Assembly (NCBI GenBank): GCA_049974095.1
Contig: JBMFJD010000010.1
Span: 1 to 32,000, forward strand
Direction: 5' to 3'
DNA from: Nanopusillaceae archaeon
Lineage (GTDB): Archaea > Nanobdellota > Nanobdellia > Nanobdellales > Nanobdellaceae
DNA length: 32,000 nucleotides
The notes beneath the pieces are model-generated. The model made no database searches and was not told the DNA's origin. It saw nothing but the letters and a program-made list of their open reading frames with translations. Shown here in pieces: positions 3,517-30,907 of the stretch. The translations under genes were made by a program, and so were the position numbers. Numbering within the stretch: position 1 is the first letter of the stretch; each line of letters starts with the position of its first letter.

Positions 3517-4437
3517 TTAATTTAAATTTAATTGAATTTTTATTTCACAGGCTCTACATATATCTCTTGTAGTAGGATAACCACAAATTTTACATTTCTT
3601 TAATTTTACCTTATTTTTCATTTTATATTCTTCCTTTGCCTTTAATAAAATTGGTAAGAAATTATTAATAAAATTCTCATGGAATTTATTATATTTATTT
3701 TCTACTTCATATAATTTTGCCCTAACAATATCCCTAAATTGTCCTCTAATAAATGGACATTCTCCATATGGTGGTTCCAAATTATTTATAACAGAATATA
3801 ATAAATTTTCCTTTTCCCTATTAAAATAAAATGGTTTTATTCTAGGAATAAAATCTTCCTCAATTATTCCAACAAAAGGTCCTTCTTTTAATAAATCTTT
3901 TAAATTTCCTTCAAAGAAATTCATTAAAATTGTTTGTACTTCATCATTTATATTATGTGCAGTTGCAAATTTATCTAAATTTAAATCCTTTGCAGCTTTC
4001 CACATTAACCATCTTCTCCATACTCCACAAATTGTACATGCTCTATATTTTTTTGTTATTTTTACAGCATTATCTAATCTTATTTTAAAATAATCAGTAA
4101 ATTTATATATTTTAATATTCCAATTATATTTTTGAGCTAATTCTAATAATTTTTTTGTATCTTTATCTCTATATCCTGCAATTCCTTCATCAATATGTAT
4201 TCCATATACTTCTATATTAAAATAATCCTTGTATTTATTTAGAAAATATAACAATGCATTTGAATCTTTTCCTCCAGATACTCCAACTCCAATTCTTTCT
4301 CCAGGTTTAATTAATTTAAATCTTTCAATTGTATTAATTGCTTTTTCTTCAAAATATTTTATAAAATGTTCTTTACAATAATAATTTCCATCACTATCCT
4401 TATATATTGCATTATTATTACAAAAAGAGCATTTCAT
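3517..4437 (-). CDS. PP-loop ATPase, tRNA 2-thiolation enzyme of the TtuA/Ncs6(NcsA) family
   Basis: PP-loop GVGVSGGKDSNALL. N-terminal zinc ribbon CSFC...YYCKEH, C-terminal CKICGYPTTRDICRAC, and central Cys residues (CTICGVWRR, GECPF) as in Fe-S dependent TtuA/Ncs6 enzymes. Confidence 0.75.
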   Translation of the reverse strand: MKCSFCNNNAIYKDSDGNYYCKEHFIKYFEEKAINTIERFKLIKPGERIGVGVSGGKDSNALLYFLNKYKDYFNIEVYGIHIDEGIAGYRDKDTKKLLELAQKYNWNIKIYKFTDYFKIRLDNAVKITKKYRACTICGVWRRWLMWKAAKDLNLDKFATAHNINDEVQTILMNFFEGNLKDLLKEGPFVGIIEEDFIPRIKPFYFNREKENLLYSVINNLEPPYGECPFIRGQFRDIVRAKLYEVENKYNKFHENFINNFLPILLKAKEEYKMKNKVKLKKCKICGYPTTRDICRACEIKIQLNLN

Positions 4438-5450
4438 TTATTTATTTCTCTTATAAAGTAATCTCTTATTGCAGGTACAACATCATAAATAAATTTACTC
4501 TTAACCTTTGTTCTTACTAATAGTTTTGCTTCAACCATTCTTTTTAATATATTAGACAATGAATGTATTGTTGTATCAGAATATCTCTCTTTAAATAACT
4601 TTAATAATTCATTAACTCCTTTTGGTCCATATTTTGTTAATAATTCAATAATGTATCTTTGTTTTTCAGTTAATTTTAATATATCTGTAGGTGGTTTTTT
4701 ATTTTCATATATTTTTTCAATTATTTCTCTATCAATTATATTTTTTCTTTCTCTATATGCAATTAATAATGATTCATATGAATATTTTAATATTTCTCTT
4801 GGTAATCCTCCAGATAAATGATATATTTCTTCAATTGCATCATCTGTAAATAAACCAGGATTTCCTGCTAATTCTAATCTTTTCTTAATTAATAATTTTC
4901 CACTTTCAGGATCTAAAGATTTTAAATATATTTTTGTTAGAATTCTTTCATATAATGTTCTATGTTCTTTTATTAATTTTTCTTCAAATTCTGGTAATCC
5001 TGCTAAAATAAATGTACATTTTGTTTGATCAGATAATATTTTTATCCATTCAATTATATCATTATTAAAAAATGTTGCTTCATCAATAAAAATTATCATT
5101 TCTTTTTTATTTAGATAATCTAATAGATTAAATTGTTTAAATTTATATATTATTTTTTCAAAAAAAGAAAATCCAGCCTTTATATATTTTTCTAATTCTT
5201 CTTTTTCATTAAAAGGTCTATAAATATATATTTTATTCTTTTTATCTAAATTATTAAATGTCCATAATAATAATGTAGTTTTTCCAGCACCTGTAGGGCC
5301 AGAAACTAATATTATCTTTTCTTTATTATTTATTGCATTAATTAATTTTTCTCTTTCTAAATTATATCCTACAAATGTTTCTAAAATTACTTCTAATTTA
5401 AATGGGTTATTTTTTAGATTAAAGAATTTTAACATTTCTTCATTATTCAT
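4434..5450 (-). CDS. AAA-type ATPase (ExeA/AAA_22-like) with C-terminal winged-helix domain
   Basis: N-terminal FNLKNNPF, Walker A SGPTGAGKTTLL, Walker B MIIFIDEA, and FTDDAIEEIYHLSGGLPREI (ExeA-like signature). The C-terminal LTEKQRYIIELL...SNILKRMVEAKLLVR resembles a wHTH. ATGA overlap with the downstream PP-loop gene. Confidence 0.6.
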   Translation of the reverse strand: MNNEEMLKFFNLKNNPFKLEVILETFVGYNLEREKLINAINNKEKIILVSGPTGAGKTTLLLWTFNNLDKKNKIYIYRPFNEKEELEKYIKAGFSFFEKIIYKFKQFNLLDYLNKKEMIIFIDEATFFNNDIIEWIKILSDQTKCTFILAGLPEFEEKLIKEHRTLYERILTKIYLKSLDPESGKLLIKKRLELAGNPGLFTDDAIEEIYHLSGGLPREILKYSYESLLIAYRERKNIIDREIIEKIYENKKPPTDILKLTEKQRYIIELLTKYGPKGVNELLKLFKERYSDTTIHSLSNILKRMVEAKLLVRTKVKSKFIYDVVPAIRDYFIREINK

Positions 5451-5769
5451 CTTAATTTAATCATTGTAAAAAATATTATTAAATATTTTTAAATAAAAAA
5501 ATTCTCTTAATATAAATAAATAAAACAATTTAAAATTTAAATGGATATTGCTATTATATATAAAAAGACATATAAAGATTTTTTATGAAAAGAAAAGATA
5601 AATTAAAAGATATTAAATGAAGAAAAGAAAAATTATGTGAAATGTTGAAATGATATAAAGGTTTTTATATAGATTTTTAATTAAGATATAAATAAAATAT
5701 ACTCAAACTAATAGCTAAATAGTTTAAGATAAATTAATAAAATTTCTTAGAATAAAATATTTTATAAAT

Positions 5770-5842
5770 AGCCCCGTCGTCTAGTGGTCTAGGATGCAGG
5801 GTTTTGGTCCCTGTGACCGGGGTTCGAATCCCCGCGGGGCTA
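5770..5842 (+). tRNA. tRNA-Gln (anticodon UUG), no encoded CCA
   Basis: Manual cloverleaf: acceptor AGCCCCG/CGGGGCU, D arm GUCU-AGUGGUCU-AGGA, anticodon stem CAGGG/CCCUG with loop UUUUGGU (UUG), variable UGAC, T arm CGGGG-UUCGAAU-CCCCG, discriminator A. It is a GC-rich island in AT-rich DNA. Confidence 0.9.
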
Positions 5843-5874
5843 GTTTTATAAATAATCAAAATTTATATTTTGAT

Positions 5875-6495
5875 ATGATCGAATCATTATCTTTAATTTT
5901 ATCTCAAATATTCTCTTATGATTCATTAAAATTACTAGTAATTTTTGTTGTGATAATTATTATAGGATACTTTATTGGTAAATTGGTGGCATTTATATTA
6001 AAAATAATTCTAAATAAAATTTTGGGATTAGATAATTGGTTACATGAAAAAGGAGTATTACAAAATATCTCTCTTACACAAATTTTAATCAATATAATTA
6101 AATTCTTTATATATTTTTACTTTTTTGGTTATGCATTTTATATAATTCCATATTTATCATTCATAGGAAAAATAATATTCCAGATTTTGAATTATCTATT
6201 ATTAATAATTTTGTTAATGATTTTATCATTTGCAATGATGGAAATATTAATAAAATCTTCATTAGAACCTTTATTAGATAATTTAAAATATAAAGAATAT
6301 TTATTAGCATTTATTAAATTTATTGTTTTGTTCTTTGTATTAATTTTAATACTAAGTTATCTTAATTTATTATCTCCAGTACTATTATATCTTTTTGTTA
6401 TATTATTTGTAGGAATTGTAATATCAATATCAATAGCAGTTGGGGTAGCATTAAGTGAAATATTAAAGAAGAAATTTAGAGAAATATTCAAATGA
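5875..6495 (+). CDS. integral membrane protein, function unknown
   Basis: The ORF-track start (5794) lies inside the tRNA gene. The first ATG after the tRNA is at 5875 (MIESLSLILSQ...). The protein is highly hydrophobic with multiple predicted TM helices. Confidence 0.55.
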   Translation: MIESLSLILSQIFSYDSLKLLVIFVVIIIIGYFIGKLVAFILKIILNKILGLDNWLHEKGVLQNISLTQILINIIKFFIYFYFFGYAFYIIPYLSFIGKIIFQILNYLLLIILLMILSFAMMEILIKSSLEPLLDNLKYKEYLLAFIKFIVLFFVLILILSYLNLLSPVLLYLFVILFVGIVISISIAVGVALSEILKKKFREIFK

Positions 6496-9143: not shown

Positions 9144-11555
9144 ATGAAAGTATTTGTTATAGATTTTGATCATGATAAAGAAAAAGTATATATTTATGGA
9201 AGAGATGAAAATGGAAAAAAGGTAAGAATTGAATATGATCAACCATATTATGTATATTTAATATTAAAAGATGAAAAATATTTAAATGAAATAGAAAATA
9301 AATTAAAAGAAGAAAAATATGTAAAGAAATATGAAATTGAAAAAAAGAATTTTATTGGAAAAGAATATACTGTAATTAAAGTATATTTAAACCAGGATGA
9401 TTATGATAAAATAAAACAATTTGCAGATAAATTAAAAGAAGAAGGTAAATTAGTTGGAAAAAAAGAAGGAGATATACTAATTATTAAAAAATTCCAGATA
9501 GATAATAATATATATCCATTAGATTGGTATGATTTAGATTTAGAATTAATAAAAAAAGGAGATATTGACTATTATAAATTTAAAAAAAATAATGGAAAAG
9601 TTGATGGAAAATATAATTTAAAAGTTGTTGCAATAGATATTGAAACTGTATCTGAACAAGCAATTCCTTCTCCAGATAAAGTACCAATTTATTTAGTTTC
9701 AATATATGATGGAAAAAATTATTATTCAATATATTGGAGTGGAAATGCAGAAATTGGGATAAAAGTAAATAATGAATTAGAATTATTAAAAAAGTTTAAT
9801 GATATAATAAAAGAAATAGATCCAGATGTAATTGTAGGATATAATTCAAATAATTTTGATTTTTATTTCTTATATGAAAGAGCAAAAAAATTAGGATTTA
9901 ATTTTAATTTTGGATGGGATGGAAAAGGAATTATATATACAAAGAAAAGAGAAGAAGATAAAAAATATAAAATTACTGGAATACAACATGTAGATTTATA
10001 TGATATTGTATCAATATTATTTGCTCCTCAATTAAATTCAGAAACTTATTCATTAGATGAAGTTGCAAAAGAAATATTGGGAGAAGGAAAAATGGATATG
10101 GATATTAATAAAATGACAGATATAATTTATAATACAAAAGATTTTAATTATTTAATAAAATATAATCAAAAAGATGTTGATTTAACTTTTAGATTATATA
10201 AATATTTTGAAAATATTTTAATTGAAATTTCAAGATTGGTTGGAATAACATTATATGAATTATCTGGAAGTACATATGGAATATTAGTAGAAAATTATTT
10301 AATTAAAAAGGCAAGGGAATTTAATGAAATAATACCAAATAGACCAAAACCTGAAGAAGTTGAAGAAAGGAGAAAAATAACATATGCTGGAGCAATTGTA
10401 TTAGAACCAAAACCTGGATTATATAAAAATATTGCAGTATATGATTTTAGGTCTCTATATCCATCAATAATTATTAGATATAATATTTCTCCAGATACAT
10501 TAAAATGTGAACATGAAGAATGTAAAAAGGATAAAATAATTGCTGAAACAAGTTTAGGAAAAATTGAAGTATGGTTTTGTAAAAAGAAAAAAGGATTTAT
10601 TTCTACAATATTAGAAAAAATATTTGAAGAAAGAGCTGAAATAAAGAAAAAAATGAAAAATATGGATAAAAATAGTGAAGAATATAAAATACTAGATAGT
10701 AGGCAAATTGCATTAAAATATATAATTAATTCTACATATGGATATTTAGGATTTCCAAATTCTAGATGGTATTGTTTGGAATGTGCATCGTCAGTTACTG
10801 CTTTAGGAAGGAAACATATAACAGAAGTAAAAGAATTTATTGAAAAGAAAGGATATAAAGTATTATATGGAGATACAGATTCAATTTTTGTAATTGTAAA
10901 TAATAAAGAAGATGCATTGAAATTATTAGAAGAAATAAATTCTATTTTACCAAAACCATTAGAAATGGAATTTGAAGATTATTATATATCTGGAATCTTT
11001 GTTGAAAAAAGATCTGGAGAAGGAGGTGCTAGAAAGAAATATGCGTTATTATCTGAAGATGAAAGTATAAAATTGAGAGGATTTGAAGTTGTAAGAAGAG
11101 ATTGGTCAGATATTGCTGGAGAAGTACAGGAAAATGTAATAAGATTAGCATTAGAAGGAAAAATAAATGAAATAAACCAATATCTTTCTGATGTAATAAA
11201 TAAAATAAAGAATCATGTATATCCAAAAGAAAAATTTATTTTAAGGGAACAATTAAGGAAAGAATTATCTGAATATGAAGTAACAGCTCCTCATGTAATT
11301 GCTGCAAAGAAATATAAAGAAAGAGGATATAATGTTGGAAAAGGATTTATTGTAGAATATATTATTGTAAGAGGAGGAGAAAAGATATCTGATAAAGTAA
11401 GATTAGTGGATGAAGTAAAAGATAATGAATATGATCCAGATTATTATATAAATAAACAAATAATACCTGCAGTAGAATCTATATTAAGGGCATTAAATAT
11501 ACATATAGAAAATATTGGAAAGGTACAAAAAAATATTTTATCATTCTTTAAATAA
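9144..11555 (+). CDS. polB: family B DNA polymerase, contiguous and intein-free
   Basis: Exo I VVAIDIET, Exo II YNSNNFDFYFL, Exo III YNQKDVDLTF. Pol motif A DFRSLYPSII, motif B KYIINSTYGYLG, motif C YGDTDS. 803 aa. Confidence 0.95.
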   Translation: MKVFVIDFDHDKEKVYIYGRDENGKKVRIEYDQPYYVYLILKDEKYLNEIENKLKEEKYVKKYEIEKKNFIGKEYTVIKVYLNQDDYDKIKQFADKLKEEGKLVGKKEGDILIIKKFQIDNNIYPLDWYDLDLELIKKGDIDYYKFKKNNGKVDGKYNLKVVAIDIETVSEQAIPSPDKVPIYLVSIYDGKNYYSIYWSGNAEIGIKVNNELELLKKFNDIIKEIDPDVIVGYNSNNFDFYFLYERAKKLGFNFNFGWDGKGIIYTKKREEDKKYKITGIQHVDLYDIVSILFAPQLNSETYSLDEVAKEILGEGKMDMDINKMTDIIYNTKDFNYLIKYNQKDVDLTFRLYKYFENILIEISRLVGITLYELSGSTYGILVENYLIKKAREFNEIIPNRPKPEEVEERRKITYAGAIVLEPKPGLYKNIAVYDFRSLYPSIIIRYNISPDTLKCEHEECKKDKIIAETSLGKIEVWFCKKKKGFISTILEKIFEERAEIKKKMKNMDKNSEEYKILDSRQIALKYIINSTYGYLGFPNSRWYCLECASSVTALGRKHITEVKEFIEKKGYKVLYGDTDSIFVIVNNKEDALKLLEEINSILPKPLEMEFEDYYISGIFVEKRSGEGGARKKYALLSEDESIKLRGFEVVRRDWSDIAGEVQENVIRLALEGKINEINQYLSDVINKIKNHVYPKEKFILREQLRKELSEYEVTAPHVIAAKKYKERGYNVGKGFIVEYIIVRGGEKISDKVRLVDEVKDNEYDPDYYINKQIIPAVESILRALNIHIENIGKVQKNILSFFK

Positions 11556-22937: not shown

Positions 22938-24701
22938 ATGGAATTTGTTCCATTATATATTAAAAATTTATGCTTCAATTGTGGAGGAACCATATCATCT
23001 TATAGATTATCTAATGGTTTACCATGTAATGATGATTTAGATGATAATGATATAAAAGAATTATTAAATATAAAGGATGAAAATGAATTTATAGAAAAAT
23101 TATATGAAAAATTAAAACAAAAAGGAAAATTAAAGAACTTTGATGAAATATATAAATTATATAAAGAAACAAAAGAATTTAAAGAATTTTTTAATAAATT
23201 AATTAAAAATGATCCTTGGAGAATACAATTAATGTGGTTTAAAAGATTGTATAAAAATATAAGTTTCTCTATGATCACTCCAACAGGAATTGGAAAATCT
23301 ACATTTATTATAGTTTCTTCAATATATTTTGCTTATAAGTATAAAAAGAAGATAATAATTGTTTTGCCTACAAGGTTATTGGTAAAACAAGTATTGGATA
23401 CATTTAACAAATTTTTATCTGAATTACAAATTAATTTAGAAATAGCATATTATTATGGAAAAGAAAAGAAGGGACAAAAAGAAAAAATAAAAGAAGGAAA
23501 TTATAATATTTTGGTTATATCTAATCAATTTTTATCAAAAAATTTTGAATTATTAAAAGATAAAAAATTTGATATAGCGTTTATTGATGATGTAGATTCA
23601 TTTTTCAAAGGATCAAAGAATATAGAAAGAATATTTATTTTGTTAGGATATACTCAGGAAGAAATAGATATTGCTAAAAAGATAATTGATTTAAAATTAT
23701 CTGGAAAATTAAATTTTAATAGCGAATTGTATAAAAAATTTTTAGAAATTAAAAATAAAAAGGCAGGAATTATTATATTATCTTCTGCTACTGGAAGTTT
23801 AAGGGGTAAAAGAGTATTATTATATAGAGAATTGGCAAACTTTACTGCAGGAACTGGTACTTCTAAAATAAGAAATGTTATAGATGTATTTTATTATCCT
23901 AAAGATGATATAAAGAAAGAAGTATTAAAAATTGTAAATTTGCTAAAAGATGGGATATTAATTTTTGTTCCAAAAGATAAAGGTATAGAATTTGCAAAAG
24001 AATTATACGAATATTTAAAGAATAATAATGTAAATGCTGAATATGTATCAGCAGAAGTTAAAAATATCGATGAGATAATAAATAATTTTAAAGAAGGAAA
24101 GGTAAATGTATTAATTGGAATTTCAGATCCATATGGAATATTGGTTAGGGGTATAGATATACCAGAAAGGATTAAATATGCAATATTTGTTGGAATTCCT
24201 AAGATAAGGATTAATATCTCTAAATTAGAAAAAAATATAAATAATCTTTTAATATTAGCATCTTTAATAGCACCAGTATTACCAGAACTTGAAAAAATAG
24301 AATTATCAAGAAAAGTTGAAATAACTAGGAGAAATTTAAAAAGATTATCTTCAGAATCTTTAAAATTAATTAATGAATATTTATCTGGAAATAATGTAAA
24401 TCTAAAAGGATTTAACAAGAAAGTTGCAGATGATTTATTATTATTATATAATAGAGTAAATGAGTATTTAAAAAATAAAGAAATAATTGAAAAAATAAAG
24501 GAAAATCCTGAGGTGTCTACAGAAATAATAAATAATGATATTTATGTTAAAATTGCAGATCTAAAATCATATATTCAAGCATCTGGAAGAACTTCTAGAT
24601 TATATGCTGGAGGGATTACAAAAGGTCTTTCTATTATTTTAGTTGATGATGAAAAACTGTTAAAATCCTTAGATTTAAAGTTAAGATATTATCTGTTGTA
24701 G
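22938..24701 (+). CDS. rgy: reverse gyrase, N-terminal helicase-like half only (split gene)
   Basis: N-terminal zinc finger CFNCGGTISSYRLSNGLPC, WRIQLMWFKRL, Walker A ITPTGIGKST, DDVD box, SSATG, and YIQASGRTSRLYAGGITKGLSIILVDD. The ORF stops about 25 aa after this last motif, where the topoisomerase IA half normally begins. The next gene is tmcA. Confidence 0.85.
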   Translation: MEFVPLYIKNLCFNCGGTISSYRLSNGLPCNDDLDDNDIKELLNIKDENEFIEKLYEKLKQKGKLKNFDEIYKLYKETKEFKEFFNKLIKNDPWRIQLMWFKRLYKNISFSMITPTGIGKSTFIIVSSIYFAYKYKKKIIIVLPTRLLVKQVLDTFNKFLSELQINLEIAYYYGKEKKGQKEKIKEGNYNILVISNQFLSKNFELLKDKKFDIAFIDDVDSFFKGSKNIERIFILLGYTQEEIDIAKKIIDLKLSGKLNFNSELYKKFLEIKNKKAGIIILSSATGSLRGKRVLLYRELANFTAGTGTSKIRNVIDVFYYPKDDIKKEVLKIVNLLKDGILIFVPKDKGIEFAKELYEYLKNNNVNAEYVSAEVKNIDEIINNFKEGKVNVLIGISDPYGILVRGIDIPERIKYAIFVGIPKIRINISKLEKNINNLLILASLIAPVLPELEKIELSRKVEITRRNLKRLSSESLKLINEYLSGNNVNLKGFNKKVADDLLLLYNRVNEYLKNKEIIEKIKENPEVSTEIINNDIYVKIADLKSYIQASGRTSRLYAGGITKGLSIILVDDEKLLKSLDLKLRYYLL

Positions 24702-24890
24702 TAACATTAATTTAACAAAATATTAACTTATATATTTAACAATTTAACATATTTTAACATTTAATTAATTTTTATTTTTAACATATTAACGTCGCATAAT
24801 CTTTATTTTTCATTAATTTAACAAAATATTAACTTACTAATTTAACTCTTTAACACTACTTAACATATGTTTAACGAATTTTTAACATGT
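24701..24890 (+). repeat. TTAAC motif array (14 copies plus 1 GTAAC, all same strand) with internal 106-bp duplication
   Basis: TTAAC starts at 24712, 24723, 24736, 24744, 24754, 24778, 24786, 24818, 24829, 24842, 24850, 24860, 24871 and 24882. The 26-mer cattaatttaacaaaatattaactta is identical at 24705-24730 and 24811-24836. Confidence 0.85.
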
Positions 24891-24929
24891 ATAAAATAAA
24901 TTCTTAAATACTCTCTAGAATTCATAATT

Positions 24930-27242
24930 ATGGATCTAAAAAAAGATTATGATAAATTATTATGTAAAATAATAAAAAATAATCATAGAGGAATAATAGT
25001 AATATCTGGAAGTAATTATTTTGATATAATTTCAGATTTAATTAATAGGTATTATGAAATAATAAAGAATTTTAGACAAGACATAAATATATTATATGTT
25101 ACAGAGGATTATTATGGAGACTTTTTATATAGATTTGAAAAATTGGAAGAAAAGTTAAAAGATTTTAATATAACAAAAATAAAATATAAAGATTCTAGAA
25201 AAATATTAGGAAAGACATTTAATATAATAATTTTGGATATGTATAAATCTTTAACGCCAGATCATTTAGGAAGGATAATAGAAACATTATCTGGTTCAGG
25301 AATAGCATTTTTCTTAATAAAAGATTTTGAAAATTTTGAAAATATTACAACAACATTTCATGAGCATTTATTAACTCCTCCATATAAAATAGAAGATGTA
25401 AGAAAATATTTTGAATATAGATTTAAGCAAAAATTATTGCAATACGATAATATAATAATATATGATACAGAAAAAGGATTAATAAAGGGAATAAATGAAG
25501 AATGCAATGTAGAGGAAGCAGTTCCACCAGAAAGGAAAAAGTTAATATTAAATGAAAAGAAAATTTTTTCAGATAGAATATATAAATTATGTTTAACACA
25601 AGATCAAGCAAATGTATTAAGTATGTTAGAAGATTTGTTAAATAATGAAAAATCAATATTTTTAATAATTGCTGATAGAGGAAGAGGAAAAAGTGCATCT
25701 TTGGGATTAGCAATTGCAGGATTAGTAGAAATATTATTGGAAAAAAATAAAATATATGATATTGGGATAACTGCTCCAGAATTTGAAAATGTGGAAACAT
25801 TATTTGAATTTTTAAAAATAGGATTAAATGGAAATAATATAGAATATAAGGAGATTAAAAACAAGAAGATAATCATAAAAAATAAAATATATATAGAATA
25901 TAGAAAACCTTCAGATATATTAAGAAAAAAGTATGATATTTTATTTGTAGATGAAGCTGCAGGTATTGGTATATTATTTTTATATCAATTTGTAAATAAA
26001 TATAGAAAAGTAGTATTTTCTTCGACAATCCATGGATATGAAGGAGCTGGAAGATCTTTCTCTGTAAGATTTCTAAAATATTTGAATAGTCTAATTGGTA
26101 TAAAGATATATAAATATAATATGATTGAACCTATTAGATATGGAGAAGGAGATCCAATAGAAAAATGGCTATATGATACATTATTATTAGATTCGGAGCC
26201 TGATGAGATCAATGAGGAAGATAAAGAATTGATTAAAAATAAAGAAACAAGATTTTATAAAATACCATTAAAAGATTGGTTTTATAATGATGATCCTAAA
26301 TTAAAGAATTTTGTAGGAATTTATATTTTAGCTCATTATCAAAATAAACCAAATGATATTGCAATGCTTGCAGATGCGCCACATCATGATGCTTTTATAT
26401 TAGAATTAAAAAATGGAAAAATTGTTGATGGAATACAAGTTGCATATGAAGGAGGGATTGATGATGAAACAATAGAAAGAATGTTAATGGATTATAAACC
26501 AAAGGGAAATATAATACCAGATATAATTGTAAAACATTATAGATTAAAAGAATTTGCAAAATTAAAGGGATTGAGAGTTATAAGAATTGCAACAACACCA
26601 GAAATACAAGGTATGGGATTAGGATCTATTTCATTACAAGAATTAACTGAATGGGGAAAGAAGAATAATTATGATTGGTTAGGATCTAGTTTTGGTGTTA
26701 CACATGAATTATTAAATTTCTGGCAAAAGAATGGATTTGTTTTAGTTCATTTATCTCCTGAAAAAAATAAGGTATCCGGGGAATATTCAGGAATAGTATT
26801 AAAACCTTTAAATGAAGAAACAGAAAAAATTGTTAAAAAATTAAATTATGAATTTAGATGGAGATTAATAAATCAAATATCAGATGTATATTTTGATTTA
26901 GAACCAAAATTAATATTAAAAATGTTAGAAACTCCATATAAATTTAAACCACATTTTAAATTATTATTAACAGAAAATCAAATTGAAAGATTAGAGGGAT
27001 ACTTAAAATCTCCAATGACATATGAAGCTGCTGCAGATGTTGTTAAATTATTATATCTATACTATTTAGTATATACTGATAAAGATAAACCAAAGATTGA
27101 AGATGAAGAGATAATGGTTTCAAAATTTTTATTATCATGGAGCTTTAATAAATTATCAGAATATTTTAATTTAAAGAAATTTGAAGCAAGAAGAAAAATA
27201 AAGAAAAATGTAAAAATAATATATAAATGGTTATTTAAGTAA
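24930..27242 (+). CDS. tmcA: tRNA cytidine N4-acetyltransferase TmcA (Nat10/Kre33 homologue)
   Basis: Helicase-type ATPase motifs IADRGRGKSASLG and ILFVDEAAGI, then STIHGYEGAGRSFSVRF. GNAT domain RVIRIATTPEIQGMGLGS. 770 aa. Confidence 0.85.
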   Translation: MDLKKDYDKLLCKIIKNNHRGIIVISGSNYFDIISDLINRYYEIIKNFRQDINILYVTEDYYGDFLYRFEKLEEKLKDFNITKIKYKDSRKILGKTFNIIILDMYKSLTPDHLGRIIETLSGSGIAFFLIKDFENFENITTTFHEHLLTPPYKIEDVRKYFEYRFKQKLLQYDNIIIYDTEKGLIKGINEECNVEEAVPPERKKLILNEKKIFSDRIYKLCLTQDQANVLSMLEDLLNNEKSIFLIIADRGRGKSASLGLAIAGLVEILLEKNKIYDIGITAPEFENVETLFEFLKIGLNGNNIEYKEIKNKKIIIKNKIYIEYRKPSDILRKKYDILFVDEAAGIGILFLYQFVNKYRKVVFSSTIHGYEGAGRSFSVRFLKYLNSLIGIKIYKYNMIEPIRYGEGDPIEKWLYDTLLLDSEPDEINEEDKELIKNKETRFYKIPLKDWFYNDDPKLKNFVGIYILAHYQNKPNDIAMLADAPHHDAFILELKNGKIVDGIQVAYEGGIDDETIERMLMDYKPKGNIIPDIIVKHYRLKEFAKLKGLRVIRIATTPEIQGMGLGSISLQELTEWGKKNNYDWLGSSFGVTHELLNFWQKNGFVLVHLSPEKNKVSGEYSGIVLKPLNEETEKIVKKLNYEFRWRLINQISDVYFDLEPKLILKMLETPYKFKPHFKLLLTENQIERLEGYLKSPMTYEAAADVVKLLYLYYLVYTDKDKPKIEDEEIMVSKFLLSWSFNKLSEYFNLKKFEARRKIKKNVKIIYKWLFK

Positions 27243-29909: not shown

Positions 29910-30149
29910 ATGTATAGAATATATGAACTATGTGGAAAGAGCGATTATAGTATAAGATTTGATAAAAAAATAGATGTTAAAAAGGTAAAGGAATATTTTA
30001 AAGATTATGAAATAATAGATGAAAATGAAGAAACAATAAGTTTAAGAAAAGAAGAAAAAAATGTTATAGGATTTTCATATGGAGAAGTAATTTTGGTTAA
30101 TTTTAATATTGAAGAAGTTGAAAAAATAGCTAAATATATAGATAGTTAA
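29910..30149 (+). CDS. small hypothetical protein, 79 aa
   Basis: ORF with typical local composition, preceded by an AT-rich TATA-like stretch. No recognised motif. Confidence 0.4.
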   Translation: MYRIYELCGKSDYSIRFDKKIDVKKVKEYFKDYEIIDENEETISLRKEEKNVIGFSYGEVILVNFNIEEVEKIAKYIDS

Positions 30150-30258: not shown

Positions 30259-30285
30259 TTAGTTAACGATATTGATTAACAAATC

Positions 30286-30293
30286 TATATAAA
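30286..30293 (+). promoter_or_regulatory. putative TATA box of the archaellin gene (leaderless or short-leader transcript)
   Basis: tatataaa ends 24 nt upstream of the ATG at 30317, the spacing expected for an archaeal TATA box driving a near-leaderless mRNA. Confidence 0.4.
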
Positions 30294-30316
30294 TTACGAG
30301 ATTGTTTATTTTTAAC

Positions 30317-30907
30317 ATGAAGGGCCAAGGTACAGGTTTTTCATCGATGGTATTATTTATAGCAGCAGCATTGACAGCAGCAATAGCAGCCTTTGTAATT
30401 ATTGGTGCAACAACAAGTGCACAAGGACATGCAGCAGCAGCAGCACAACAAACAGTACAAACATCAGGTACAACTGTAGAAATAGTTAGAGTAGAAGGAA
30501 TAAATGTAAATACAACAACACAAGCAGTACAAGAATTCTTAGTATATACAAGGTTAGCACCAGGATCACAACCAATATTATTAAATCAAACATCAGTAAT
30601 ATTATATGCACCAGCTGGAAGAGAAGTATTTGTATATGGAGGAGCTGTAGCAGATTCATCATTAGTAACCAGTTATACAGGATACTACTTTATTGATCAA
30701 CAGGATTCTGTAGATAATTCAGGATTGTTATTCAATGGTGTATTAGGTCCAAATGATCTAGCAGCATTATTAGTATATGCAAATGTAACATTAGGAACAT
30801 CACAAACATGGGAAATTTCAATTATACCACCAAATGGACAACCATATGATCTATCAGGAATAACACCGGCTGCAATGGTATATCCAACAGTAGTATTATA
30901 CGGCTAA
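30317..30907 (+). CDS. arlB: archaellin (archaeal flagellin) with class III signal peptide
   Basis: From the ATG at 30317: MKG/QGTGFSSMVLFIAAALTAAIAAFVIIGATTSAQG. This has K-G at -2/-1, Q at +1 and a long hydrophobic helix, as in the archaellin N-terminal domain. A T/V/Q/G-rich beta-type body with N-x-S/T sequons follows. The ORF-track start at 30302 is a TTG extension. Confidence 0.7.
   Translation: MKGQGTGFSSMVLFIAAALTAAIAAFVIIGATTSAQGHAAAAAQQTVQTSGTTVEIVRVEGINVNTTTQAVQEFLVYTRLAPGSQPILLNQTSVILYAPAGREVFVYGGAVADSSLVTSYTGYYFIDQQDSVDNSGLLFNGVLGPNDLAALLVYANVTLGTSQTWEISIIPPNGQPYDLSGITPAAMVYPTVVLYG

Follow-up and report, generated by a model that had tools for sequence, protein, structure and literature searches.

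The rgyN and tmcA genes of a Nanopusillaceae archaeon (assembly GCA_049974095.1, contig JBMFJD010000010.1) are separated by a non-coding spacer that contains a dense, helically phased array of the pentamer TTAAC. The whole stretch of DNA analysed, positions 1 to 32,000 of the contig, is referred to below as the window. The reading frames 22938-24701 and 24930-27242 flank a spacer of 228 bp (24702-24929), and the features of the junction are as follows:

22938-24701, plus strand: rgyN, the helicase-like half of a split reverse gyrase, matching positions 5-555 of 1172 of TIGR01054 (rgy), with zf_Rg, DEAD and Helicase_C domains; stop codon TAG at 24699-24701
24660-24684, plus strand: two in-phase TTAA (24660 and 24681, as GTTAA) in the rgyN 3' coding end, with phase offsets of +0.5 and +0.3 bp relative to the TTAAC mean
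24705-24730, plus strand: first copy of the 26-mer CATTAATTTAACAAAATATTAACTTA, start of a 106-bp segmental duplication
24712-24886, plus strand: array of 14 TTAAC (consensus TTTAACA) and an in-phase TTAAT at 24765, on a 10.6-bp lattice
24712-24758, plus strand: module copy 1, five sites with spacing 11-13-8-10, 42 bp or 4 turns
24769-24810, plus strand: sole interruption of the lattice, with T-runs TTTTTATTTTT (24769-24779) and CTTTATTTTTC (24800-24810)
24811-24836, plus strand: second copy of the 26-mer CATTAATTTAACAAAATATTAACTTA, exactly 106 bp on
24818-24864, plus strand: module copy 2, five sites with spacing 11-13-8-10, followed by two further sites at +11 and +11
24891-24901, plus strand: TATAAAATAAA, TATA/box A-like element of tmcA, 3 bp past the last TTAAC and 39 bp before the ATG (24930)
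24930-27242, plus strand: tmcA, RNA cytidine acetyltransferase, with TmcA_N, NAT10/TmcA helicase and GNAT domains

The TTAAC pentamers start at 24712, 24723, 24736, 24744, 24754, 24778, 24786, 24818, 24829, 24842, 24850, 24860, 24871 and 24882, with start-to-start spacings of 11, 13, 8, 10, 24, 8, 32, 11, 13, 8, 10, 11 and 11 bp. The spacer contains no TTAAC on the minus strand (GTTAA). The sequence GTAAC at 24701-24705 overlaps the rgyN stop codon and represents the first degenerate site. The sites, their spacings and the GTAAC over the stop codon agree in full with the initial annotation of the window. TTAAC occurs 51 times on the plus strand and 35 times on the minus strand of the window, which has a G+C content of 23%, and the runner-up 190-bp segments contain at most three copies. 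Dinucleotide shuffles of the spacer (n=2000) contained 1.7 TTAAC on average and nine at most, which substantiates the excess over chance that had previously been a rough estimate. The remaining spacers of the window contain 0-1 TTAAC each, with the exception of that between tRNA-Glu and an archaellin-type gene.

When the positions of the sites were expressed as angles and periods from 7 to 16 bp were scanned, the best period was 10.6 bp (R=0.81). None of 5000 random placements equalled this value (P<0.001), and the proposed helical phasing is thus upheld. Additional in-phase TTAA at 24660 and 24681 (in the last rgyN codons), 24765 (TTAAT) and 24904 bring the lattice to a span of about 245 bp, and its start seems to lie within the 3' coding end of rgyN. 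Sharing between repeat copies is limited to TTAAC and weak preferences for flanking bases, with T at position -1 in 32 of 46 sites and A at +1 in 25, which yields the consensus TTTAACA. The two T-runs within the interruption of the lattice are candidate oligo-T terminators for rgyN; an archaeal T-stretch terminator has been described in Nanoarchaeum equitans (PMC3491384).

The array stops at TATAAAATAAA, a putative promoter element of tmcA, as had been noted for the TATA-like sequence in the initial annotation. The box A of N. equitans is TTTAAA, located at -26/-27 (PMC3491384). None of the hexamers of the array is TTTAAA, and only TATAAAAT at 24891 is correctly placed to serve tmcA. The array ends at comparable positions relative to the tmcA promoter in related genomes.

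The orthologous junction between rgyN and tmcA was taken from about 20 related Nanopusillaceae contigs with tmcA identities of 60-99%. Every junction spacer contains the array, with 6-24 sites and a period of 10.6-10.95 bp, and the length of the non-coding strip is kept at 95-300 bp down to 60% tmcA identity. The syntenic arrays that had been suggested as a check are thus present in about 20 orthologous spacers, with diverged linkers. The sites in relatives of the window clade are distributed as follows:

L003 (tmcA 78% identical): 12 TTAAC
L002 and ten Nst1-like metagenome contigs (tmcA 77-80%): 6-9 TTAAC
Candidatus Nanobsidianus stetteri Nst1: 9 TTAAC
Nanobdella aerobiophila: 7 TTAAC and 10 TTAAT

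The listed sites are on the plus strand in all of these loci, with 0-2 on the other strand. Dinucleotide shuffles of five spacers (window, L003, L002, Nst1 and L004) gave means of about 0.9-1.7 TTAAC and never reached the observed count. The best TTAAC period is 10.6-10.7 bp (R 0.75-0.97) in five independent lineages, and the long gaps of 24, 32, 33, 42, 43 and 74 bp are multiples of the same period. The spacing string 11-13-8(-10) recurs twice in the window, in L003, in Nst1 and twice in the consensus of the Nst1-like contigs (L130-L139).

In a more distant clade, TTAAC on the plus strand is rarer and the element is, if anything, stronger. The 304-bp spacer of L142 starts with four TTAAC at the rgyN end, the first of which contains the stop codon, and continues with 16 GTTAA of the consensus WTGTTAAA, mostly exactly 11 bp apart. 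Motif orientations are mixed in L006, L007 and L210, and two clusters in opposite orientation are present in L142, L006 and L007. The single-strand character claimed for the array in the initial annotation therefore holds for the window clade and fails in L142, L006, L007 and L210, where the orientation is mostly opposite or mixed. The L142 spacer also contains a direct repeat, AGTTATCC-N4-AGTTATCC, at 2700-2735 between its plus and minus clusters, seen in this lineage only.

The palindromic TTAA core is phased in ten of ten lineages tested, including the distant ones (P<=0.001 versus random placement). The period of the TTAA lattice is 10.6-10.65 bp in the clade of the window and Nst1 and 10.8-10.95 bp in L006, L007 and L142, as measured over lattice spans such as L006 3801-4003, L007 3823-4003, L142 2656-2967 and window 24660-24904. 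Bootstrap intervals of the best-resolved spacers do not overlap: they are 10.50-10.70 bp for L002, Nst1 and L138 and 10.75-11.00 bp for L006, L007 and L142, while the wide intervals of the window, L003 and L004 do not allow an assignment. We speculate that the difference between clades is tied to habitat temperature or to the helical repeat in vivo.

A sliding-window scan ranked the junction spacer as the top phased-TTAA segment in all six syntenic loci, and no comparable segment occurs in L009 or in 22 kb elsewhere in a related genome. The tmcA genes of L009, L211 and L212 (50-59% identity) have another upstream neighbour and no array. Therefore, the element belongs to the junction of rgyN and tmcA and not to tmcA as such.

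Selection was evaluated in 11 alignable Nst1-like spacers, in which 13 TTAA cores comprise 52 columns and the linkers 68. Invariant columns make up 50 of the 52 in the cores (mean pairwise identity 0.987) and 20 of the 68 in the linkers (0.706; Fisher p=4e-15), and the fifth base of the sites is only C or T. As judged from these aligned spacers, the TTAA cores are under purifying selection and the conserved core is TTAA(Y). Selection on the 26-mer CATTAATTTAACAAAATATTAACTTA had been proposed because its two copies are identical. The duplication at a distance of 106 bp is real. The selection is not borne out, since the 26-mer is shared by the window and L001, its 99%-identical relative, and by none of the other 213 loci. 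Its confinement to one strain-level lineage indicates a recent 106-bp duplication rather than a conserved 26-mer.

The recent duplication would be expected if a short unit bearing TTAAC had been amplified by slippage or segmental duplication and had no function. Tandem Repeats Finder (TRF) detects short arrays of 8, 10 and 17 bp inside the region, and pattern scans showed that ordinary TTAAC-containing tandem repeats are numerous in public genomes and viruses. Such repeats keep the whole unit (identity of about 1.0), whereas the junction array keeps only the motif and its linkers differ. The array also persists across tmcA identities of 60-78%, with invariant cores, drifting linkers and a lattice that is maintained over long gaps. 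The neutral reading is already disfavoured, and we regard it as hardly credible. A simple tandem repeat or minisatellite was likewise rejected: the TRF arrays are weak (scores 37-56), cover 24730-24787 and lack likeness over the whole period. A scan of 185k genomes for the 13-8 module returned, among the matches listed, the same orthologous spacer of Nst1 and unrelated bacterial tandem repeats with 8-, 13- and 21-bp units, the latter attributable to a selection effect of the search pattern. The 11-13-8 module had no match in viruses. The 11-11-11 pattern had at least 120 viral matches, all of which are perfect 11-bp tandem repeats, and it was set aside as unrelated. Long TTAAC tandem repeats occur in bacteria, especially Bacteroidota (L014, L018, L049, L067, L080 and others), and appear unrelated.

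Phasing at the helical repeat is a property of duplex DNA and not of RNA. A function of UUAAC repeats in the rgyN 3' untranslated region, as binding sites of an RNA-binding protein or in pairing with the mRNA of the other reverse-gyrase half, would fit the location of all motifs on the sense strand in the window clade and the start of the array at the stop codon. A 10.6-bp period is meaningless for RNA, the orientation is inverted in other clades, and transcription probably stops at the T-runs within the array. In the complete genome AP031373.1, with an rgyN 77% identical to that of the window, no TTAAC cluster and no complementary or similar array occurs within +/-10 kb of rgyC, which has no upstream spacer and a downstream spacer of 31 bp. 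We therefore rejected an array common to both reverse-gyrase halves and RNA pairing between them, and consider any element acting as RNA barely conceivable. A structured non-coding RNA was also rejected, because Rfam gave one chance match in the coding end of rgyN (E=0.19) and none for the array, and the minimum free energy of the folded spacer (-9.4 kcal/mol, z=+0.74) was no better than that of shuffled sequences. The rgyC gene of AP031373.1 (L213 10001-11902) encodes the topoisomerase half in a tight co-directional cluster of aS21, EF-1beta, rgyC, TRAM and L7Ae, in which the end of EF-1beta and the start of rgyC overlap. The two halves of reverse gyrase are thus in very different regulatory settings.

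Based on the conservation of the motif and its lattice, we propose that the spacer may be a docking array on double-stranded DNA, adjoining the tmcA promoter, to which one sequence-specific protein would bind in many copies. We give this reading about an even chance. Among the roles considered in the initial annotation, it corresponds to the cooperative binding platform on one face of the helix. That role is favoured by the motif and the 10.6-10.95-bp phasing kept in about 20 spacers, by the constraint on the cores and by the end of the array at the tmcA promoter. From the rgyN stop codon to the TFB-recognition element (BRE) and TATA box of tmcA, there would be one TTAA(C) site per helical turn, all on one face of the duplex. 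A small DNA-binding protein would occupy successive turns in many copies that touch along this face, with one protomer per turn reading a short asymmetric site. The conserved 11-13-8-10 sub-pattern points to a putative 42-bp unit with four to five protomers. One site of this pattern is out of register by about 3 bp, an offset more suggestive of a defined oligomer than of a generic lattice. The resulting nucleoprotein filament would abut the core promoter of tmcA, control the access of TATA-binding protein (TBP) and TFB, and thereby set the initiation of tmcA transcription. It might also shield the tmcA promoter from rgyN transcription. We infer the binding of protein, its cooperativity and tmcA as the target from the arrangement of the sites, and sites located upstream of or over the BRE would be compatible with recruitment and occlusion alike.

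Several observations weigh against a docking array at the promoter. The binding protein is hypothetical. The tmcA genes of L009, L211 and L212 do without the array, which is thus not a general requirement of tmcA promoters. The orientation of the motif relative to tmcA flips between clades, which is unusual for a directional promoter-proximal element, and to our knowledge 14-24 sites far exceed those of known archaeal regulators. The uniqueness of the array within a genome is established for about 54 kb only. The flip of orientation and the loss in the absence of synteny count against a simple promoter element and keep readings as an origin, a titration site or a chromatin element alive.

The invariance of the palindromic TTAA, once per turn and with an orientation free to flip between clades, is what would be expected of a structural element. 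The kinkable TpA steps would provide phased, anisotropic flexibility and position or nucleate an architectural protein, such as a histone multimer or an Alba-like or other protein, that does not read specific bases. Such an element might serve, for instance, to insulate the two genes from each other or to sense twist or temperature. The period of 10.6-10.95 bp, which depends on the clade as shown by the non-overlapping bootstrap intervals, is near the helical repeat of relaxed DNA at 65-85 C, by our own estimate from thermal untwisting. With left-handed wrapping around histones, a period of less than 10.5 bp would be expected, which counts against this reading. The fifth base is mostly C, although C makes up 10% of the genome, and toggles only to T; together with the preferences for T at -1 and A at +1, this makes the site asymmetric. 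The conserved 11-13-8-10 spacing argues for a defined protein geometry, and no static curvature is predicted. The end-to-end to contour ratio in a wedge model with Bolshoy parameters was 0.945-0.968 for the array, compared with a median of 0.947 and a 5th percentile of 0.86 for the window, which is indicative only. The array is thus at or straighter than the window median, and the suggestion of intrinsically curved DNA found no support. Repeats of the T(n)A(n) type, to which the motif belongs, classically do not curve, in agreement with the wedge model. On balance, we consider a chromatin element unlikely.

A chromosomal replication origin or an initiator-titrating site, in which TTAAC would be the initiator repeats and the AT-rich interruption 24787-24817 the unwinding element, is quite unlikely. 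The genome is very compact, the spacer is one of its few long non-coding spacers that are conserved, and GINS51 is located 1.8 kb away. The repeats form two blocks, which are inverted in L142, L006 and L007 like origin recognition boxes (ORBs) around a duplex unwinding element. Bacterial CtrA boxes, which occur in the Caulobacter origin, share the sequence TTAA-N7-TTAAC. In the window clade, all sites are direct and no ORB-like dyad is present. The ORB and mini-ORB sites of Orc1/Cdc6 are 13 bp or longer, and a motif of 5-7 bp repeated at 8-13 bp is too dense for these proteins. The cumulative GC skew over 32 kb tracks gene orientation without a switch at 24.8 kb, and the flanking genes are co-directional. 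Archaeal origins typically adjoin their initiator gene (PMC4010727), and Pfam and NCBIfam scans of the reading frames recognised no orc1/cdc6 or whiP-like gene in the window. The AAA+ gene at 4434-5450 (minus strand) matches thymidine kinase and TnsC-like ATPases and is not Orc1/Cdc6 by Pfam, NCBIfam and PDB sequence searches, and an origin beside an Orc1-like gene was therefore rejected. A 318-bp, very AT-rich spacer between this gene and tRNA-Gln (5451-5768) contains no TTAAC and no obvious repeats.

In sequence terms, TTTAAC differs by a single base from TTTAAA, the nanoarchaeal box A. TTTAAC and TTTAAA occur 10 and 0 times inside the array, and 1 and 24 times in the other intergenic DNA of the window, both strands included. 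Therefore, the C is specified and is not a by-product of AT-richness. TTAAC is not avoided outside the array, with an observed-to-expected ratio of 1.08. The palindrome GTTAAC occurs twice outside the array on both strands, compared with 5.3 expected (ratio 0.38); the numbers are small and the deficit may be due to chance. TTAAC as a general promoter motif was rejected, since it is missing from all other spacers of the window bar the archaellin one. Genes upstream of the junction encode GINS51, L44e and a PAC2 protein, and the downstream neighbourhood contains sufS, sufBD, tRNA-Glu and archaellin-type genes, where two further features are located:

29910-30149, plus strand: conserved, unannotated 79-residue open reading frame (ORF) between sufBD and tRNA-Glu, 5 kb downstream of the array
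30263-30280, plus strand: TTAAC-N8-TTAAC, 5 bp upstream of TATATAAA (30286-30293), the TATA box of an archaellin-type gene with ATG at 30317

A third TTAAC is located at 30312-30316, directly before the archaellin-type ATG. The pair beside the archaellin promoter is the only other close TTAAC pair of the window, and no close pair other than this conserved one was found elsewhere in 54 kb of related sequence. It is intact in L134 (6835-6852) and L006 (7952-7969) and degenerate in others, and its N8 linker corresponds to the 13-bp step of the array module. The pair may be a second target of the putative binder of the junction array, and the same protein would probably be present at both. Nanobdella aerobiophila alternates between archaellated free cells and attached cells (PMC11104419), and on that account a regulator is to be expected at the archaellin promoter.

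The 79-residue ORF is 43-59% identical in four relatives, has nine matching clusters among 1.84 billion representative proteins and has no Pfam or NCBIfam match. Its predicted structure (pLDDT 94.5) has the order beta-beta-alpha-beta4-alpha, and the best PDB fold matches in Foldseek are TBP and TBP-domain proteins, with query-normalised TM values of 0.5-0.59, probabilities up to 1.0 and weak E-values of 0.04-0.3. Sequence comparison, profile search included, gave no link to TBP. Thermococcales possess monopartite TBP-domain proteins of unknown function (PMC3597702), and it is possible that the predicted fold represents another. These observations, together with the box A of N. equitans and the exclusive use of TTTAAC in the array, would fit weak or decoy sites for TBP or a TBP-fold protein, forming a local reservoir or sink. 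Binding to the minor groove in the manner of TBP is disfavoured by a G:C pair within a TATA element, the helix-grip fold is a common one, and successive 80-degree bends at each turn look sterically difficult. The ORF is tied to the array by proximity alone. We therefore regard decoy sites as improbable. A still more speculative version is that the array is a string of disabled boxes A (TTTAAA changed to TTTAAC), read by a homodimer of the 79-residue half-TBP as an architectural regulator and not by TBP. The lattice would then make occupancy sensitive to twist, and hence to temperature and reverse-gyrase activity. We consider this version a long shot.

The docking array, if it exists, would mark an unrecognised protein-DNA assembly in a lineage whose regulation, chromatin and replication control are essentially uncharted. 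Genomes of Nanopusillaceae are about 0.6-0.8 Mb long and have almost no spare DNA, yet the non-coding strip is retained. The element is small, and Nanobdella aerobiophila and Nanopusillus acidilobi are available in co-culture, so that it is directly testable. If the binder were a regulator that also acts at the archaellin promoter, RNA acetylation would be linked through it to the motile and attached life cycle of N. aerobiophila (PMC11104419). If the array were an origin or titration site, it would imply a new logic of initiator recognition in archaea. The clade-specific period (10.6 versus 10.9 bp) offers an unusual handle on the helical repeat in vivo in thermophiles with reverse gyrase.

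TmcA is most similar to proteins from a JGI hot-spring contig (99% identity), from Nanobdella aerobiophila and metagenome-assembled genomes (75-78%), and from Nanopusillus-like metagenome-assembled genomes (64%). Elsewhere in the window, the ORF 5794-6495 overlaps tRNA-Gln (5769-5843) by 50 bp, and its true start codon is therefore probably located further downstream. The family B DNA polymerase is encoded by a single ORF of 803 residues (9144-11555); that of N. equitans is split.

The architecture of the array can be compared with several known systems. The type II plasmid centromere parC likewise consists of short direct repeats, about one per turn and in two clusters, and is bound cooperatively by many copies of the small protein ParR. 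This protein is of the ribbon-helix-helix type, and parC, which overlaps a promoter, also serves as the operator of that promoter. The iterons of parC keep the whole 11-bp unit, whereas the array keeps 5-7 bp at spacings of 8, 10, 11 and 13 bp, has 14-24 sites, is chromosomal and archaeal, and has no parM- or parR-like neighbours. The array thus has the helix-phased direct repeats of iterons and parC and lacks their conservation of a whole unit of 10-22 bp. No cognate rep or par gene adjoins it, the flanks being GINS51, rgyN, tmcA and sufS. The parC site of plasmid R1 has two repeat clusters (5+5; PMC2241845).

The direct-repeat boxes of OmpR, PhoB and CtrA resemble the array in their asymmetric half-sites, arranged head-to-tail at 11 bp start-to-start on one face beside a promoter. 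TTAAC-N6-TTAAC, with half-sites 11 bp apart, occurs five times in the array of the window. The CtrA consensus TTAA-N7-TTAAC matches the array literally, most likely by coincidence. The CtrA and pho boxes are bacterial and have 1-5 sites, compared with 14-24, and no winged-helix response regulator was seen among the ORFs of the window. The ribbon-helix-helix repressor omega of pSM19035 binds cooperatively to a short asymmetric heptad that is repeated 7-10 times upstream of promoters and functions in direct and inverted orientation. The omega heptads thus share with the array a short asymmetric motif used in both orientations. They are contiguous, with a 7-bp period on a bacterial plasmid, and their protein spirals around the DNA, whereas the array has one site per turn on one face.

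Archaeal ORB and mini-ORB clusters are also found in long AT-rich intergenic regions, with inverted clusters in some lineages. Unlike the 5-7-bp motif at 8-13-bp spacing, they are at least 13 bp long, have a dyad core and lie by orc1/cdc6; the array has neither an initiator gene nor a change of skew beside it. The archaeal activator EarA recognises four copies of the 6-bp repeat TACATA upstream of the Methanococcus fla promoter, and thus likewise short repeats upstream of the BRE and TATA box; an archaellin promoter is also among the putative targets of the binder of the array. Its motif differs, it has four copies rather than 14-24, and no strict helical lattice has been described for it. Nucleosome-positioning sequences such as Widom 601 contain TA steps phased at about 10.0-10.2 bp and do not depend on a particular flanking base or strand. 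They resemble the array in having TTAA or TA once per turn over about 150-250 bp and differ from its period of 10.6-10.95 bp and its specified C.

A literature search on archaeal TTAAC or TTTAACA arrays and on origins of Nanoarchaeota returned nothing relevant, and no archaeal element that combines 14-24 sites with a spacing of one per turn is known to us. The array is closest in architecture to parC/ParR, to the OmpR, PhoB and CtrA repeats and to the omega heptads. It is a member of none of these, because conservation of the whole unit fails, the cognate genes are missing and the taxonomic setting differs. If the docking reading holds, it belongs to a known kind, that of cooperative binding-site arrays, in an archaeal form with 14-24 sites at one per helical turn.

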